Below the pieces are notes generated by a model. That model saw only the letters and a list, made by a program, of their open reading frames with translations, was not told where the DNA came from and made no database searches. From Burkholderiales bacterium (GTDB lineage Bacteria > Pseudomonadota > Gammaproteobacteria > Burkholderiales > JBEEJL01): a DNA stretch of 64,000 nucleotides. Positions within the stretch are counted from its first letter, which is position 1. Each line of letters opens with the position of its first letter. Location of the stretch: positions 905-64,904 of the forward strand of contig JBAVRP010000030.1 in assembly GCA_049695115.1 (NCBI GenBank), in the 5' to 3' direction. Below, one piece after another: positions 2,593-64,000 of this stretch. A program made the translations under genes and the position numbers.

Positions 2593-4167
2593 CTACTCCC
2601 ACTCGATCGTCGCTGGCGGTTTCCCCGACACATCATAGACCACGCGATTAATGCCGCGCACTTCGTTGATGATGCGGTTGGAAGCTTTGCCGAGCAAAGT
2701 GTAGGGCAACTCGGCCCAATGGGCGGTCATGAAATCGCTGGTGACGACGGCGCGTAGCGCGATGACGTAATCGTAGGTGCGGCCGTCGCCCATGACGCCG
2801 ACCGATTTCACCGGCAAAAATACCGCGAACGCCTGCGAGGTTTTTTCATACCAACCTGCGTTGCGCAATTCTTCGATGAATATTGCGTCAGCACGGCGCA
2901 ATAAATCGGCGTATTCTTTTTTCACTTCACCGAGTATGCGCACGCCGAGCCCGGGGCCGGGGAACGGATGGCGATACACCATGTCGTGGTGCAGGCCCAG
3001 CGCGACGCCCAGTTCGCGCACTTCATCTTTGAAAAGTTCACGCAGCGGTTCGAGCAATTTCAGCTTCATCGTATCGGGCAAACCGCCGACATTGTGGTGC
3101 GATTTGATGGTGTGGGCTTTTTTGGTTTTCGCGCCGGCGGATTCGATCACGTCGGGGTAAATCGTCCCCTGCGCCAGCCATTTAGCATTGGGCAGTTTTT
3201 CCGATTCTCTCTGGAATACTTCAACAAATTCACGGCCGATGATTTTGCGTTTTTGTTCCGGATCGGTCACGCCGGCGAGGTGGCGCAAGAATTCATTGGT
3301 CGCATCAACGTGTATCACCTTCACGCCAAGATGGTCGGCGAAAGTCTGCATCACTTGTTCCGCCTCCTTCAATCTCAGCAGGCCGGTATCGACGAACACA
3401 CAGGTCAATTGCTTGCCGATGGCTTTGTGTATCAGCGCCGCGGCAACAGACGAATCGACGCCGCCGGATAAACCGAGTATCACTTCGTCATTGCCGACTT
3501 GCGAACGGATTTTACCGATGGCTTCATCGACGTAATCGGGCATATTCCAATCCGACGCAAGGCCGCAAATATCATGCACGAAGCGCGACAGAATCGCTTC
3601 GCCTTGCAAGGTATGCGTCACTTCGGGGTGAAATTGCAGTGCGTAAAATTTGCGCGCTTCGTCCGCCATGCCGGCGATGGGTGTGGCGGCGTTGGAAGCA
3701 ATGATTTTAAAACCCGGCGGAATCTGCGTCACTTTGTCGCCGTGGCTCATCCATACATCGAGCATGCCGAAACCTTCGGCGGTGCGGCGGTCTTCGATGT
3801 CGCGCAGTAATTCGCTGTGGCCGCGGGCACGGATTTCCGCGTAACCGAATTCGCGCACCAAGCCGTTTTCCACTGCGCCGCCCAATTGCGCCGCCATGGT
3901 TTGCATGCCGTAACAAATGCCCAGCACCGGCACACCGATTTCGAATACGGCTTGCGGCGCGCGCGGCGAAATATTTTCCGTCACGGAATTCGGGCTACCG
4001 GAAAGAATAATTCCCAGCGGCGCAAAATCACGGACGAATTGATCGCTGACGTCATAAGGATGCAATTCGCAATACACTCCGCATTCGCGCACGCGCCGTG
4101 CGATTAATTGCGCGTATTGCGAGCCAAAATCAAGGATGAGGATTTTCTTATGGTTCATGCCGTTCAA
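2593..4167 (-). CDS. guaA: GMP synthase (glutamine-hydrolysing)
   Basis: 524 aa. GATase domain ([28 protein letters not shown]), ATP-PPase P-loop SGGVDSSV, and the canonical C-terminus PPATIEWE. Confidence 0.97.
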
Positions 4168-15454: not shown

Positions 15455-18400
15455 TCAATGCAACTTACGCCTGCGCAACTGTATCAACGCGCCCCCCGCT
15501 AATAATAGCAACATTGGATCAAACGGTGCATCACTACCAGCCAAGACACAACCTCCTCCACCACCTCCGCTAGACGAAGGCACAGGTGTCGGCGCAGGGG
15601 TGGGTGTTGGCGTTGGCGTTGGTGTTGGCGTTGGTGTTGGCGTTGGTGTTGGTGTTGGTGTTGGTGTTGGTGTTGGTGTTGGTGTTGGTGTTGGCGTTGG
15701 CGTTGGCGTTGGTGTTGGCGTTGGTGTCGGCGCAACAGTTGAAACTCCGCTCAAAGCTATTTGAACTGTTATTGGCTTTCCATCCGTCGTAATGGTCAAA
15801 ATACCAGACTGCGTTCCTAATGTAGTCGGCAAGAATGTTACATTGAAAGTCGCAGATGATCCGCGCGGAATCAGGCCGTTGGTCAAATTAGTTCTGAAAG
15901 CCTGTGCATTATCGATACTCAAACTGGTAATGGAGACATCGCTATTACCTGTATTGGATAAATTAAACTGAAGGGCTTTGCTACTCGATTGCACTACAGA
16001 GCCAAAATCAATTTGGGTAACATTTGGTGAAATGTTCCCAGTAAGTACGCGCGCACCTGCACGATGCATAATGGCTGCTGTTGCCGCATTCGGATTGAGT
16101 TCAATCGCCGTCGTACTGGTTGGGGCACCTGTTGTAGCGACTGGAATGCGGTAAGCTTTCCTACCTTTAGTAGCGTCCGGCGCAATAAGCGTTATGAAGT
16201 CATCATTACCCCAAAAGCTCGGGAGGCTACCGGTGTTCAACCCATTGCTTCCAAGATTAAACACACGATGAGGTGTTTGGTGCTCTAAGTCAAAAGAATA
16301 GACAGAATAATTTACATTGGCAGGGTCTCGAAAGTCATTGACGTCAAACGCAATGACGTTTCGGTTATTGGTCGCAAAGACTGGGTTGCCGATATCAAGT
16401 CCTGGGTCTTGGCTAGGGATCAAATATTGCAATTGACGCGTCAAAATATCTGATCGGCCGATGGTCCAATAACGGTAACCGCCACTTGTTGGCGTGCAAG
16501 CATTACTGGGTAACGATATGCAATTGAGGGCATCGAAAATGATATAGCGGCCAGCGTAATCAAAATTCAGCGAGTCAGCAAACAGTACTGTGTTCTGCGC
16601 AGCCGCTCCGCTCTGGTAGTTTTCCGATGTCAAGGTAATATCAAAATTACTTGCCCCCGAAGCATCGCTCAAATCCAGAACATGGATATGATTATCCGTA
16701 ACGCTAGTAGTAGTAAAAGCGAAATAACGAAAGTCTGGCGATATAGCGATACTGTTATATGCCCCAGTCGTTGTTATGGTATTTCTGCTAATGAGATTGA
16801 ATGTAGCAGGGTCAAACTCCGTCACTTGTATATTCCCAGCAGTATCAAGATACAAAATATCAGTCAACGTCTGGTTACTTGCGTTTTTATACGATATGAC
16901 TGCAGGTCGCTTATGTGCCACATTGAGAGCCACCGAGTTAGCAGGGCCTCTAGTATTTGTCGCGTCGTAACCTGCAAACGGCACCGCCATTTTTTGAACA
17001 TAGATGTCATACGATTCTGAAGAGGGTACAAACGGGATGATTGGTTTGGTCAGGTACACCATCAAGTCGCTACCGGCGGCAGAATCTGTTGATGTTGGCG
17101 TAGATGGTGGGTTGATATTGTCCGTAACTTCCACCAAGTCCCACGCCTTGGCCACAGCCACTTCGTCGCCAGGAAATAAATCTTTTGCTGCTTGAATCGT
17201 TGCGCGGCGCGCGTCAATGAATTGCGACGATTGCACAAGATAGGTCGTCAGAGCGCGGTAGTAAATTTTTTCGGTATGCGCGCGACCAATGCTTGTGCCG
17301 AGGCCTTCTGCAGTAAGCCCTTCTGCAATCAAATACGCTGCGCGATTCGGTATGCCACTATTGACGTGTACCCCACCATTATCTCCTGCTTTTGTCTGAG
17401 GCAATCGTTGATAATCACTCATTTTCGTCGGCTGCGGATCTTGACTAAGCCCAGGATTTGCCAAACTACGAAGGTAAAAAGGCGCTTTTTTTACGCAGCC
17501 GTCGCCAACTGTCCACTTTCTACCGTCCACAATGGCACCAAATACGTCAGCGAATGATTCGTTTAATGCCCCGCTCTGATTTTGGTAAATCAAACCTGCA
17601 GAATTCTGTATGACGCCATGAGTCATCTCATGGGCGGCCACGTCGAGACACGCAGCTAAATTGCTAAATGTTGTACCTCCGTCTCCATAAAACATATTTG
17701 TACCATCCCAATATGCCTGGTCTAGATTTTGTCCAACATGGATTACCGCTTGCAGCGTTCCATTTTTGTCATCAATACTATTTCTGCCGTGCGTATTTTT
17801 ATAGTAGTCATAGACTCTTCTCGTGTTATATGCGGCACTAACAGCCGCAGGATCCCATATGTTAAGTGAACTAGTAATCACGAAGTTAACTGGATCTAGA
17901 GTATTCCCCGCAGTCTCGATAAATGTATCGCTACGCGGATTGCCCGCTATCAACGAAGCAACCGGATCGTAGTTCACACCATCGGCAGCAGCACTTGGAG
18001 TAGTCGGATCAATCAAGTAGAACCCTCCATTGGCTGACCAAGCGGTAAAGCTGCGCTGCACTCCATTCAAATCGGTGCCACTTGCAGTTACTACTGCACT
18101 TTGAATATTATCAATGCGATCAATTACCTTGCCGGTTTTGGCATCGACAAAATGAATCCAGTTTTGGTTTAACGCGGGCTTGGTCACTACTTTATACGCC
18201 AACGTCATCGCACCCTTCTCGGCGGTATGGATGACTAATTCGCTAACGGGTGCTGGCATTTTATTCACGCCCAAACCGAGATCTTTGAACACGGCGCTCT
18301 GCGCGGCATCAATCGTAATACTGGGGCGAGTTTCGATTGCGCTCGGTGTCGGTTCGTGACGGCCTTGCAGCAAGGTGACTTCGCGTTGGCCGTCCATGTG

Positions 18401-59822: not shown

Positions 59823-60620
59823 CTAGCGTAAAAATTCAATTAAAACATCGAGAACTTGATCCGGCTTTTCACTCATTAATGTATGGCCGCTACTGTCTAT
59901 CAATTTCGTTTTCACGTTAGGGATAGCATCCGCCAAACCTCTTGCCGCGCGCGCCGGTGTCATCACATCTGCTTTGCCGCTAATAACAAGTGTAGGGCAA
60001 GTAATCTTCGCCGCCTGCTCCAATCCAGCTTGATAGGCATTGCAGGCCGCAAGATCAGTATAAATCACATCGGGGGCGTTGCGTTCAAGCACTCGCAAGC
60101 CGACACCGCTCAACCACATGCCCGGCGCGGGATTCGCGTTGATTTGCGCGGCTGCGCTCAGACTCCACACATTCAACATGTTTATTGCAGAATGGTCGTT
60201 AGCTTTGGCGGCGGACAACAGCGCTTCGGAAACCGGCATCGGAAACGCCGTGCCGAGCAACACAAGTTTGTGGACGCGTTGCGGATGCGCACCTGCCGCC
60301 TGCAACGCTGCGAGCGAGCCCATGCTATGGCCGACTAAACTTGCTTGGTCTATTTTTAGCTCATCGAGAATCGCGATCAGCCATTCACCGATGGCTTCAA
60401 TAGATGTCAACGGCGCGCCTTGCGATTGAGCGTGGCCGGGCAAATCTACCGCCAGAACATTGAAACCATAATGCGCAAAGTAGCGGCTTTGTAATTGCCA
60501 TGCGCCGTGATATGCGCCTGCGCCATGAACAAACATGATGGTCGGCAGCGCAGCATCGAATGCTCGACCACCGGTGTAAATAAATGCAGTTTGATTGTTG
60601 ATATTGATTTGCATGATCAA
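59823..60620 (-). CDS. alpha/beta hydrolase
   Basis: 265 aa. GHSMGS nucleophile elbow. 4-nt overlap with the upstream metY. Confidence 0.85.
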   Translation of the reverse strand: MIMQININNQTAFIYTGGRAFDAALPTIMFVHGAGAYHGAWQLQSRYFAHYGFNVLAVDLPGHAQSQGAPLTSIEAIGEWLIAILDELKIDQASLVGHSMGSLAALQAAGAHPQRVHKLVLLGTAFPMPVSEALLSAAKANDHSAINMLNVWSLSAAAQINANPAPGMWLSGVGLRVLERNAPDVIYTDLAACNAYQAGLEQAAKITCPTLVISGKADVMTPARAARGLADAIPNVKTKLIDSSGHTLMSEKPDQVLDVLIEFLR

Positions 60621-61912
60621 ACCTTTTGCGACGCTTTAAGCGCACGCGATAAATCTTCAATCAAATCATCTGCATCTTCCAAACCTATCGACAAGCGCAC
60701 AGTACCTTCGGTGATGCCAGCAGCTTTCAACGCATCCGCATCCATACGGAAATGAGTGGTGCTGGCTGGGTGAATCACCAATGATTTCGCGTCGCCGACA
60801 TTGGCCAGATGCGAAAATATTTTTAACGATTCGATAAATCGCTTTCCCGCCGCACGATCGCCTTTGATATTAAAACTGAACACTGCACCACATCCGCGCG
60901 GCAATAATTTTTTCGCCAACTCGTAATCAGGATGATTTTCTAATTCAGGATAGCCGACTGATTCCACCGCTGCATGGCCATTAAGAAACGCGACAACTTT
61001 GCGCGTATTCGCCACATGTCTTTCCATGCGCAAGGACAAAGTTTCCACGCCTTGCAAAATATGAAACGCCGTCATCGGCGCCATGCACGCGCCGAAGTCA
61101 CGCAAACCTTCACGCCGTGCACGTAATAAAAACGCCGCGACAGAAGATTCTTCGCTGAAATTCATCCCGTGGAATCCTTCGTAACTATCTGTTAACGTTG
61201 AATATTTCTCACTCTTTGTCCAATCGAATTTGCCGCTATCCACCAGCACACCGCCGATTACGATGCCGTGACCACTCAAAAATTTTGTCGCCGAATGAAA
61301 CAGCAAATCCGCCCCGAGATCAAAAGGCCGCATTAAATACGGCGTAGTAAAAGTCGAATCAATCAACAGTGCAATACCGGCGTTATGCGCCACTTCAGCC
61401 ACGCGCGGAATGTCGAGCACATCAAGACCTGGGTTGCCCAGCGTCTCACCAAAAATTAATTTGGTGTTCGGGCGAATTGCATTAGCAAACGCCTTCACAT
61501 CACGCGCATCGACAAACGTCGTCTCGATACCGAAACGCGGCAAAGTGTAATGCAATAAATTATGCGAACCGCCATAGAGCGAACGCGACGCGACAATATG
61601 CGAACCCGCGCCCATCAGTGTGACAATCGCAAGGTGCAACGCCGCCTGCCCACTCGCCGTCGCGATCGCCCCCACGCCGCCTTCCAGCGCCGCGATACGT
61701 TCTTCCAAAACAGAAACCGTCGGATTGGAAATACGCGAATACACATGCCCCGGCCGCTCCATGTTGAACAACGACGCGGCATGGTCCGAACTCTCAAACA
61801 CAAACGAGGCCGTCTGATAAATCGGCGTCGCGCGCGCGCCGGTTGCCGGGTCAGGCTGCGCGCCGGCATGCAGGCTCAGCGTGTCGAAATGGGGTGTTTT
61901 GGGTGAGGCCAT
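60617..61912 (-). CDS. metY: O-acetylhomoserine aminocarboxypropyltransferase (sulfhydrylase)
   Basis: 431 aa. Cys/Met-metabolism PLP enzyme. HSATKFLSGHG (PLP Lys) and N-terminal FDTLSLHAG. Confidence 0.93.
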   Translation of the reverse strand: MASPKTPHFDTLSLHAGAQPDPATGARATPIYQTASFVFESSDHAASLFNMERPGHVYSRISNPTVSVLEERIAALEGGVGAIATASGQAALHLAIVTLMGAGSHIVASRSLYGGSHNLLHYTLPRFGIETTFVDARDVKAFANAIRPNTKLIFGETLGNPGLDVLDIPRVAEVAHNAGIALLIDSTFTTPYLMRPFDLGADLLFHSATKFLSGHGIVIGGVLVDSGKFDWTKSEKYSTLTDSYEGFHGMNFSEESSVAAFLLRARREGLRDFGACMAPMTAFHILQGVETLSLRMERHVANTRKVVAFLNGHAAVESVGYPELENHPDYELAKKLLPRGCGAVFSFNIKGDRAAGKRFIESLKIFSHLANVGDAKSLVIHPASTTHFRMDADALKAAGITEGTVRLSIGLEDADDLIEDLSRALKASQKV

Positions 61913-62017
61913 GAAATCTCCAAAATTATCTATGCGCTTGCTTGCAAAGCTTTTTTTATGCTGGCAGAGTGCTTGGAAGTATTCGAACAGACTCGGTAGA
62001 TTAGCAGATTACAAAGT

Positions 62018-62139
62018 AAAAGACCCAAGGCTTGCGCCTTGGGTCTAGATTCAGATAAATCTGAATCGGATTCGGTAGCATCCCCGAAGGGATGACCTTA
62101 TTGCAGCAACGGCTCTCACCCCGGTAAGCTACAACAATT
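62018..62139 (-). ncRNA. tracrRNA: type II-C tracrRNA (anti-repeat, nexus, two hairpins, terminator)
   Basis: The minus strand reads AUUGUUGUAGCUUACCGGGGUGAGAGCCGUUGCUGCAAU-AAGG-U-CAUCCCuucgGGGAUG-...-GAUUCAGAuuuaUCUGAAUC-u-AGACCCAAGGCgcaaGCCUUGGGUCU-UUU. CCGUUGCUGCAAUAAGG matches the CCGUUGCUACAAUAAGG block of N. meningitidis tracrRNA at 16 of 17 positions, from memory. The 5' end is approximate. Confidence 0.85.
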
Positions 62140-62141
62140 CC

Positions 62142-62171
62142 AGTTTACAACAAAAACCCGAAAGCAAACAA
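62142..62171 (-). promoter_or_regulatory. Candidate sigma70 promoter for the tracrRNA (TTGTTT-N18-TAAACT)
   Basis: -35 at 62171-62166 and -10 at 62147-62142 on the minus strand. This places a TSS a few nt before the anti-repeat. By eye only. Confidence 0.35.
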
Positions 62172-62172
62172 G

Positions 62173-64000
62173 ATGAAGAAAATTTCAATGTCCTACACCC
62201 TTGGTTTAGACATCGGCATGGCGTCCGTTGGCGCGGCTTTACTGAACGATAAGCGTATCGTCGCCCTGCACGTGCGAGCTTTTGATAAAGCCGAAACGGC
62301 TAAAGAAGGCGACCCGCTAAACAAAACCCGCCGCGAAGCCCGTTTGACGCGCCGCCGCATACGGCGTCGCGCCTTCCGTTTGTTGCGCTTGTGCCGCTTG
62401 TTGAAACGTCGGGGTTTAATTTCCGAGGCGCAACCGGAAGCGTTTGCGCAAACAGAAACCACTCCCTGGCAACTGCGCGCTGACGGATTGGACAAATTAC
62501 TCTCGCCGACGCAATGGGCAGCAGTGCTTTACCATATCGTTAAACATCGCGGCTTTCAATCCACGCGTAAAAGCGAGGCGAAAGAAGATGAAAAGGCCGG
62601 GCAAATGCTGAGCGGTGTCGGCAGCAACAAAAAACTACGCGACGAAAAAGGCTATCGCACTGTGGGCGAAATGGCGGCGAAGGATTCTGCATTTGCAGAA
62701 GCAAAGCGCAACAAGGGCGGAGACTACAGCCACACATTCGGGCGCAAAGAACTTGAACAAGAATTGCATTTGTTGTTCGAACAACAGCGTAATTTGGGTA
62801 ACGCTCACGCCCATGTTGAACTAGAAAATGCAGTCAATGATTTACTGCTTGCGCGCAGACCTGCATTAGCGGGAGATGCCCTGCTGAAAATGATTGGGAA
62901 ATGCACCTTTGAACCAGATGAGTTCCGCGCTCCCAAAGCCAGCTATAGCGCTGAACGATTTGTATGGCTGACAAAACTCAATAACTTGCGCATTTCTGGT
63001 TTAGGAGAAGTGCGCGAATTGAATGAAGGCGAGCGGCAAATATTAATTGAGCAACCTTATATCCTTGCTAAGCTGACTTACAAACAAGTTCGCGACAAAC
63101 TCAACTTGGCCGAACACGACAAATTCAATAGCGTTAATTACCGTGTCGATAAAGAAAAAGACCCAGAAATTGCCACGTTATTTGAAGCCAAAGCATATCA
63201 TGCACTGCGCAAAGAATATAAAGATGCGGGGCTTGAGTCAGAATGGAAACGCGATGCTGTGAATGCGGAGCGTCTTGATACCCTTGCCTATGCATTAACT
63301 TGCTACAAAGAAGACGATGACAGCCGCAAATATTTGACCGAGCAAAAAATAGAAAGCGAAATCATTGAAGCGGTGCTGGAAAGATCATTTTCTGAATTTG
63401 TTTCGTTGTCATTAAAAGCCTTAAGAAAAATCCTGCCATTCATGGAACAAGGACAGCGTTACGACCAAGCCGTTATCAGCGCAGGTTATCAACATCATAC
63501 CGAAATTAACAATAATAATAATAAAAACAAATACTTACCCGCGCCAGATAAAAATCAAATTCGCAACCCCGTGGTGTATCGCGCGCTGAACCAAGCACGC
63601 AAAATGATCAACGCCATAGTGCGCGAATACGGACCGCCCTCTGCGATTCATATTGAATTGGCGCGGGATTTATCCAAACCGATGGATGAACGACGCAAAA
63701 TCGAAAAAGAACAAAAAGCTTTTCAAGACGATAAAATCAGAGCGCGTGATAATTTTATTGAGCAATTTGATTTTGAACCGAAGGCTTTGGATTTACATAA
63801 ATACCGCCTCTATCGCGAGCAGGCCAGCCAATGTGCTTATAGCCAAAAAGCGATTGATCCCAATCGACTGTTCGAACCCGGCTACGCAGAAATAGATCAC
63901 GCCCTGCCCTATTCGCGCAGCTATGACGACGGGCAGAATAACAAAGTGCTGGTGCTCACCGCCGAAAATCGTAACAAGGGCAATCGCACGCCTTACGAAT
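62173..64000 (+). CDS. cas9: CRISPR-associated endonuclease Cas9, type II-C (5' partial: runs off the window end)
   Basis: Hand translation of frame 1 from ATG 62173 (alternative ATG 62188) is open for 609 codons to base 64000. RuvC-I YTLGLDIGMASVGAALL. Bridge helix TRREARLTRRRIRRRAFRLLRLCRLLKRRG. RuvC-II IRNPVVYRALNQARKMINAIVREYGPPSAIHIELARDL. HNH YAEIDHALPYSRSYDDGQNNKVLVLTAENRNKGNRTPYE. Absent from the supplied ORF track because it has no stop codon in the window. Confidence 0.95.
   Translation, partial: MKKISMSYTLGLDIGMASVGAALLNDKRIVALHVRAFDKAETAKEGDPLNKTRREARLTRRRIRRRAFRLLRLCRLLKRRGLISEAQPEAFAQTETTPWQLRADGLDKLLSPTQWAAVLYHIVKHRGFQSTRKSEAKEDEKAGQMLSGVGSNKKLRDEKGYRTVGEMAAKDSAFAEAKRNKGGDYSHTFGRKELEQELHLLFEQQRNLGNAHAHVELENAVNDLLLARRPALAGDALLKMIGKCTFEPDEFRAPKASYSAERFVWLTKLNNLRISGLGEVRELNEGERQILIEQPYILAKLTYKQVRDKLNLAEHDKFNSVNYRVDKEKDPEIATLFEAKAYHALRKEYKDAGLESEWKRDAVNAERLDTLAYALTCYKEDDDSRKYLTEQKIESEIIEAVLERSFSEFVSLSLKALRKILPFMEQGQRYDQAVISAGYQHHTEINNNNNKNKYLPAPDKNQIRNPVVYRALNQARKMINAIVREYGPPSAIHIELARDLSKPMDERRKIEKEQKAFQDDKIRARDNFIEQFDFEPKALDLHKYRLYREQASQCAYSQKAIDPNRLFEPGYAEIDHALPYSRSYDDGQNNKVLVLTAENRNKGNRTPYE

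Follow-up and report, generated by a model that had tools for sequence, protein, structure and literature searches.

The conserved element between metY and cas9

The DNA analysed here, 64,000 nucleotides from a Burkholderiales MAG (in the following, the window), ends inside a cas9 gene and raises the question of what is encoded in the 260-bp gap between this gene and metY. On the plus strand, cas9 starts with an ATG at 62173 and is open through all 609 codons present in the window (62173 to 64000; TIGR01865, E = 8e-161); it continues past the window end, and by comparison with relatives the full-length protein would comprise about 1,060 amino acids. On the minus strand, metY (60617 to 61912; NF006004, E = 8e-249), encoding O-acetylhomoserine aminocarboxypropyltransferase, lies outside the system. 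We consider it very likely that a type II-C CRISPR-Cas9 locus resembling that of Neisseria has its tracrRNA gene on the minus strand of this gap. The initial annotation had already proposed a minus-strand tracrRNA next to cas9, and all of its feature coordinates were correct on re-reading the sequence.

The proposal was borne out by comparison with related loci. A scan of species-representative genomes with a Cas9 profile delivered 80 loci, mostly from sulfur-oxidising and other Beta- and Gammaproteobacteria MAGs, whose Cas9 proteins are 47-75% identical to that of the window; over the first 609 amino acids the related Cas9 proteins show 48-75% identity, and the best protein match to the window Cas9 is 77% identical. 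When these loci were searched by nhmmer with the 136-nt minus-strand sequence of the window, the element was detected in about 76 of the 80 (E down to 1e-14), on the minus strand and 30-60 nt upstream of cas9. The II-C loci of Thiobacillus, Sulfuricella, Sulfurimicrobium, Thiothrix, Halothiobacillus and other MAGs (L001-L080 and L087) are unannotated; they have in common a tracrRNA gene on the minus strand, cas9, cas1, cas2 and an array, together with an almost identical anti-repeat. In L087, L088 and L090 the gene order is cas9-cas1-cas2-array with no fourth gene. Of a type II-C locus, which is defined by cas9-cas1-cas2 without csn2 or cas4 and by an array, the window covers the first 609 cas9 codons only.

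By the criteria of Chylinski et al. 2013 (PMC3737331), a tracrRNA gene is intergenic, within or next to a type II cas operon, has an anti-repeat that can pair with the repeat of its own locus, a promoter before and a Rho-independent terminator behind this anti-repeat, and is expressed as a discrete small RNA. Here, the element at 62018 to 62135 lies within the 260-bp gap and its terminator is found on the minus strand. Alignment with N. meningitidis and the folds further revealed a Neisseria-type II-C scaffold, in which stem-loop 1 and a terminal stem-loop come after the CCGUUGCUNCAAUAAGG junction. The arrangement is standard, since a tracrRNA upstream of cas9 is usual in types II-A and II-C (PMC3737331). 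The curated Rfam covariance model for tracrRNA did not match the region 61000 to 64000 even at E <= 10, where Rfam gave chance matches only and neither a riboswitch nor a leader. This model was built from type II-A sequences. Across subtypes, tracrRNAs show no conservation (PMC3737331). A literature search with the core sequence of the repeat returned no relevant paper.

According to the fold, the nhmmer homologues and covariation, the predicted transcript has a length of about 118 nt (62018 to 62135, minus strand). Its 5′ end is placed within about 2 nt by a conserved -10 box and its 3′ end would lie in the U-tract. The RNA starts with the 36-nt anti-repeat GUUGUAGCUUACCGGGGUGAGAGCCGUUGCUGCAAU (62100 to 62135), of which nucleotides 1-23 and 29-36 are predicted to pair with the crRNA repeat, with CCGUU as an internal loop. 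It is followed by AAGG and stem-loop 1 (GGUCAUCCC-UUCG-GGGAUG-(CU)-ACC; 62074 to 62099), as seen in the folds and the alignment, and by the linker GAAUCC (62068 to 62073), which corresponds to conserved alignment columns with the family consensus CGAAYCC. Next comes an extra hairpin of 8 bp, GAUUCAGA-UUUA-UCUGAAUC (62048 to 62067), which is specific for a sublineage as judged from the fold and the comparison with L087. The RNA ends with an intrinsic terminator (62018 to 62046), called on the minus strand by the terminator scan and marked by covariation, whose 11-bp stem with seven G-C pairs and GCAA loop, AGACCCAAGGC-GCAA-GCCUUGGGUCU (62046-62021), runs into UUU (62020-62018). All three hairpins had been recognised initially, the first as CAUCCC-UUCG-GGGAUG at 62094-62079; GGU/ACC closing pairs lengthen this stem to 62097-62074. 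Every stem of the element is made of Watson-Crick pairs. The minus-strand RNA folds with -59.5 kcal/mol, as compared to -36.3 +/- 4.0 kcal/mol in dinucleotide shuffles (z = -5.75; 0 of 200 as good).

Some details of the initial annotation had to be corrected. The anti-repeat had been placed rightly, with a length of 39 nt (62138-62100), but in the alignment with relatives the repeat-homologous part comprises 36 nt (G62135 to U62100) and the AAU at 62138-62136 lies outside. The proposed nexus block turned out to be AAGG together with the preceding 3′ end of the anti-repeat. The two ends of the anti-repeat (62100-62135, minus strand) are self-complementary (GUUGUAGC ... GCUGCAAU), and a hairpin within the anti-repeat is accordingly predicted for the free tracrRNA; pairing with the crRNA would require this hairpin to open.

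Pairing of the anti-repeat with the CRISPR repeat

More than 55 of the 80 related loci contain a CRISPR array that starts about 4.5 kb after the start of cas9. These arrays have a period of 66 nt and a repeat of 36 nt, ATTGTAGCTTTCCGGGGTGAGAGAGGGAGCTACAAC when written on the cas9 strand. From the likeness of the anti-repeat to the plus-strand repeat it follows that the crRNA must come from minus-strand transcription of the array; it then reads GUUGUAGCUCCCUCUCUCACCCCGGAAAGCUACAAU and is antisense to cas9. Such array transcription antisense to cas9 was shown experimentally in N. meningitidis and C. jejuni (PMC3737331).

In 45 distinct loci, each array repeat was joined to the anti-repeat upstream in the same locus and scored on a model in which a 5x5 internal loop lies between an 8-bp and a 23-bp helix. 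Standard pairs were found in 98.4% of the cells, and nine pairs (59 cells) showed compensatory changes on both sides. None of 500 shuffles reached any of the five pairing measures, and sliding the partner by 1-3 columns reduced pairing to 36-57%. Covariation is seen, for example, in a variable triplet of the duplex, occurring as UUU/AAA, UUA/UAA, CAU/AUG or AUU/AAU, in CCGUGG/CCACGG of L043 and L046, and in L063, where a base was inserted in repeat and anti-repeat alike. The duplex also contains 112 G.U cells, which determine the strand: as read, 98.4% of cells are paired, as opposed to 90.5% with both RNAs placed on the opposite strands. Together with the covarying tail hairpins and terminator described below, this pairing with the own array in the relatives supports the initial interpretation of the window element as a tracrRNA gene. 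As a comparative set, the loci, about 80 in number, illustrate cleanly how repeat and anti-repeat coevolve and what a promoter footprint of a type II-C tracrRNA looks like.

For the window, pairing with the repeat of its own genome is a prediction from the anti-repeat. The expected repeat, written antisense to cas9, is GTTGTAGCTCCCTCTCTCACCCCGGTAAGCTACAAT, identical to the repeats of L007 and L019; on the cas9 strand it should read ATTGTAGCTT(A/T)CCGGGGTGAGAGAGGGAGCTACAAC, and the position opposite 62125 may be A instead, as in most relatives. The initial annotation had taken the perfect complement of the anti-repeat as the repeat. Its 3′ 23 nt (CTCTCACCCCGGTAAGCTACAA) agree with our expectation and so do, allowing for wobble pairs, the 5′ 8 nt, but not the middle 5 nt and the length, which is 36 and not 39. 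No perfect complementarity is to be expected, since an internal loop would occupy the middle of the duplex, with CCGUU of the tracrRNA opposite UCCCU of the crRNA as in N. meningitidis; a bulge had indeed been allowed for. In cofolding, the window anti-repeat reached -55.4 kcal/mol with the repeat of the L007/L019 type, compared with -18.9 +/- 2.9 kcal/mol for shuffled repeats, and -50.7 kcal/mol with the family consensus repeat. The repeat to be sought in the rest of the Burkholderiales genome is thereby supplied.

Neither a CRISPR array nor a second repeat-like copy is present in the whole 64-kb window; for the array this had been stated. Its absence is expected, since the array of the relatives lies about 2.7 kb past the position that equals the window end.

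It had also been speculated that the repeat carries an embedded -10 box. In Neisseria, the extended -10 TGnTACAAT is the promoter motif inside the repeat from which crRNAs are transcribed. Neisseria crRNAs start from repeat-embedded promoters (PMC12477760). The repeats of the family end in GCTACAAT in 42 of the 45 loci, which makes an embedded -10 plausible. In the window the predicted repeat has AGCUACAAU at the place of the Neisseria motif and reads AGCTACAAT, without the TG of the extended -10. Repeat-internal promoters are conceivable here too, but the case for them is weaker than in Neisseria.

The RNA tail and comparison with known systems

The plan of the tail was derived from individual folds of 74 distinct relatives, which show AAGG, stem-loop 1 and CGAAYCC and, in nearly all cases, a terminator hairpin with a T-run behind it. 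RNAalifold, applied to 36 tracrRNAs, revealed compensatory changes in 16 of 28 predicted pairs, with 5-21 double changes in each pair of stem-loop 1 and strong covariation of the terminator hairpin.

The tracrRNAs of the relatives are 90-103 nt long with two tail hairpins; those of the window and L087 have a third one, a 21-nt palindromic insertion between linker and terminator in the window. None of the 74 folded relatives has a hairpin at this position; a few tails scored with three hairpins had been trimmed past the terminator. Among the relatives with an array, the closest is L087, a contig of a JGI metagenome; its tracrRNA is almost identical, and its Cas9 shares 74% identity with that of the window over the overlap. 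This contig carries the same insertion (about 2600-2620, minus strand) as GAUUCGG/CCGAAUC instead of GAUUCAGA/UCUGAAUC, shows compensatory changes in stem-loop 1 and terminator as well, and has a matching array repeat. Because the inserted hairpin differs by compensatory changes in L087, we regard it as a maintained feature of a sublineage and not as an error. Exact patterns of the extra hairpin and of the cas9 3′ stretch found no match in metagenome contigs.

Among solved structures, the window Cas9 has its best relatives in PDB 6JDQ and 6KC8, which we take to be structures of N. meningitidis Cas9 (NmeCas9), and aligns with them end to end (E = 2.5e-160). The likeness extends to the RNAs. The N. 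meningitidis II-C system has a 36-nt repeat that starts with GUUGUAGCUCCC and ends with GCUACAAU, an invariant G1.U wobble, the same internal loop (crRNA UCCCU, tracrRNA CCGUU) and the near-identical block UGAGA(A/G)CCGUUGCU(A/G)CAAUAAGG, followed by a stem-loop and a terminator hairpin (PMC8038530, PMC9674691). In the alignment, UGAGAGCCGUUGCUGCAAUAAGG of the window is the counterpart of UGAGAACCGUUGCUACAAUAAGG in N. meningitidis (sequence from PMC8038530 and PMC9674691), whose tracrRNA has the same AAGG plus stem-loop (PMC8038530) and whose array is also transcribed opposite to the cas operon (PMC3737331). On the other hand, the centre of the duplex reads CUCUCACCCCGGUAA in the window and UUUCUCAUUUCGCAGU in N. 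meningitidis, the hairpin sequences are unrelated, the window RNA has its third hairpin, and the Cas9 proteins, by eye in the alignment, are only about half identical.

The resemblance to type II-A is more general. In S. pyogenes, too, the tracrRNA gene lies upstream of cas9 and is read from the opposite strand, and the RNA combines an anti-repeat with a structured tail and a terminator. There is no sequence similarity to it, however, the architecture of duplex and nexus differs, and unlike in systems of the window type the S. pyogenes array is transcribed from a leader and in the direction of the cas genes. The positions of tracrRNA genes, including that of S. pyogenes II-A, are summarised in PMC3737331. 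The window tracrRNA is of the ordinary type II-C kind and had been recognised correctly; the understanding of how type II systems work is unchanged. Its sole unusual feature is the lineage-specific third hairpin, and this retains a minor interest, as does the very close head-to-head placement of the putative tracrRNA promoter and the cas9 start codon. As a small natural scaffold variant, the third hairpin possibly affects Cas9 activity. In practical terms, the result supplies a guide-RNA scaffold for an uncharacterised Nme-like Cas9 from a Burkholderiales MAG.

Putative promoter, cas9 leader and alternative readings

A promoter TTGTTT-N18-TAAACT had been proposed just upstream of the tracrRNA gene. 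It agrees with the sigma-70 consensus in only 7 of 12 positions, and a sigma-70 scan of 61800-62400 called no promoter on either strand. The position of the two boxes is nevertheless that of a conserved footprint. In 60 of 77 distinct upstream regions, against a background of 0.7 per offset, a TANNNT starts at -14 to -11 from the anti-repeat; 35 of these 60 also have a TTG 16-19 nt further upstream, which often overlaps the cas9 ATG on the opposite strand as TTGCAT. In the window, TAAACT (62147-62142) and TTGTTT (62171-62166), separated by an 18-nt spacer, stand at -12 and -36, which are the conserved offsets, and the predicted start is therefore at about G62135, the first (purine) base of the anti-repeat. 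We infer that this putative promoter (62142 to 62171, minus strand) is of a weak sigma-70 type.

Between the anti-repeat and the cas9 ATG there are 37 nt. They are filled by the putative tracrRNA promoter, whose -35 box ends 1 nt from the ATG, and the sigma-70 scan found no cas9 promoter in the gap. The plus-strand complement of the anti-repeat (GCTACAAC) was considered as a cas9 promoter and rejected, since it ends in C, has no TG and lacks a -35 box at usable spacing; by reading, only few anti-repeats of relatives would give TGnTACAAT on the plus strand. With the whole gap taken up in this way, transcription of cas9 would have to start within the tracrRNA gene or on its far side, and may cross this gene in antisense. 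It is conceivable, although we think it rather unlikely, that the cas9 leader carries the perfect complement of the tracrRNA including a pseudo-repeat, and that this leads to feedback between tracrRNA and leader or to interference between head-to-head promoters. If so, pairing of the tracrRNA with the cas9 leader could, with the help of RNase III or Cas9, act back on the expression of cas9; the promoters of tracrRNA and cas9 could interfere mutually, and the third hairpin might tune either the leader feedback or the binding of Cas9.

Expression and function of the tracrRNA can be outlined as a model. A weak sigma-70 promoter, with its -35 box abutting the cas9 start codon of the opposite strand, would drive leftward transcription from about G62135 to the hairpin and U-tract at 62046-62021, giving an RNA of about 118 nt. 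Its first 36 nt would pair with each crRNA repeat, as seen by covariation in the relatives and presumed for the genome of the window. The crRNA would be transcribed antisense to cas9 from an array that lies just past cas2 in the relatives. The duplex would consist of a 23-bp and an 8-bp helix with the CCGUU/UCCCU loop (tracrRNA/crRNA) between them. By analogy with N. meningitidis Cas9, the tail of AAGG, stem-loop 1, GAAUCC, extra hairpin and terminator would be the handle bound by Cas9.

Several assemblies of this and related species are broken in the cas locus. Four independent assemblies of the same species (L081-L084) have identical metY and tracrRNA sequences, and all of them break off where cas9 starts or somewhere in its first 520 codons; the cas locus may be poorly covered or vary between strains. 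Short-read contigs of L085, L086, L088 and L090 begin inside the anti-repeat, and those of L088 and L090 end inside the first CRISPR repeat, so that assemblies of related loci appear to break at the sequence common to repeat and anti-repeat. In the two nearest relatives (L087, 2726-5921; L085, 67-3294), gene calling splits cas9 into two or three ORFs in a row; the interruptions are either frameshifts (pseudogenes) or assembly errors. The contigs of the nearest Cas9 relatives and those obtained by a search for L087 Cas1 homologues belong to other species (64-72% DNA identity).

Breaks of this kind could be taken as a sign that the tracrRNA gene is a relic of a decayed or array-less locus and no longer guides anything here. 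The window contains no array and lacks the 3′ half of cas9, the contigs from four samples stop at or within the 5′ part of cas9, so that the cas locus of the species may be incomplete or strain-variable, and cas9 seems split in L085 and L087. We nevertheless judge a relic to be quite improbable: cas9 is open over its 609 window codons, the element has an intact promoter, anti-repeat, set of hairpins and terminator, four independent samples of the species agree in its sequence to 100%, and with the array of the relatives about 2.7 kb beyond the window end its absence was to be expected.

The other readings concern the RNA itself. If the hairpins acted on the plus strand, in the leader of the cas9 mRNA, no separate minus-strand RNA would be needed. 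The 37 nt to the ATG without a cas9 promoter would suit such an element, and the Watson-Crick stems of the window could form on either strand. The relatives speak strongly against it, as 40 G.U pairs of the tail and the 112 G.U cells of the duplex would turn into A.C mismatches; moreover, the hairpin has a U-tract behind it on the minus strand only, and the conserved -10 and -35 boxes point leftward, which leaves this reading very unlikely. Even less credible, indeed hardly worth considering, is a leader, attenuator or riboswitch of metY, despite the common orientation and a distance of only 105 nt from the end of the element to the metY start codon. Rfam has no riboswitch or leader match at E <= 10, and past the terminator the relatives show no sequence conservation. 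In about 76 loci the element is found together with cas9, and outside the species metY adjoins it in none of them; only same-species contigs show this neighbourhood. The element is linked to cas9 and not to metY, and a tracrRNA gene of a type II-C locus is the reading that we retain.

Some minor observations concern the composition of the window. Inside cas9 (63000-63540) the G+C content is 0.42, compared to 0.5-0.6 in the flanking genes, and at about 63511-63534 a run of AAT and AAA codons encodes NNNNNKNK. Far from the locus, at 15561-15754, tandem units of 6 and 12 nt (GGTGTTGGCGTT...) form 10 overlapping 68-nt copies, which are probably a repetitive coding stretch.
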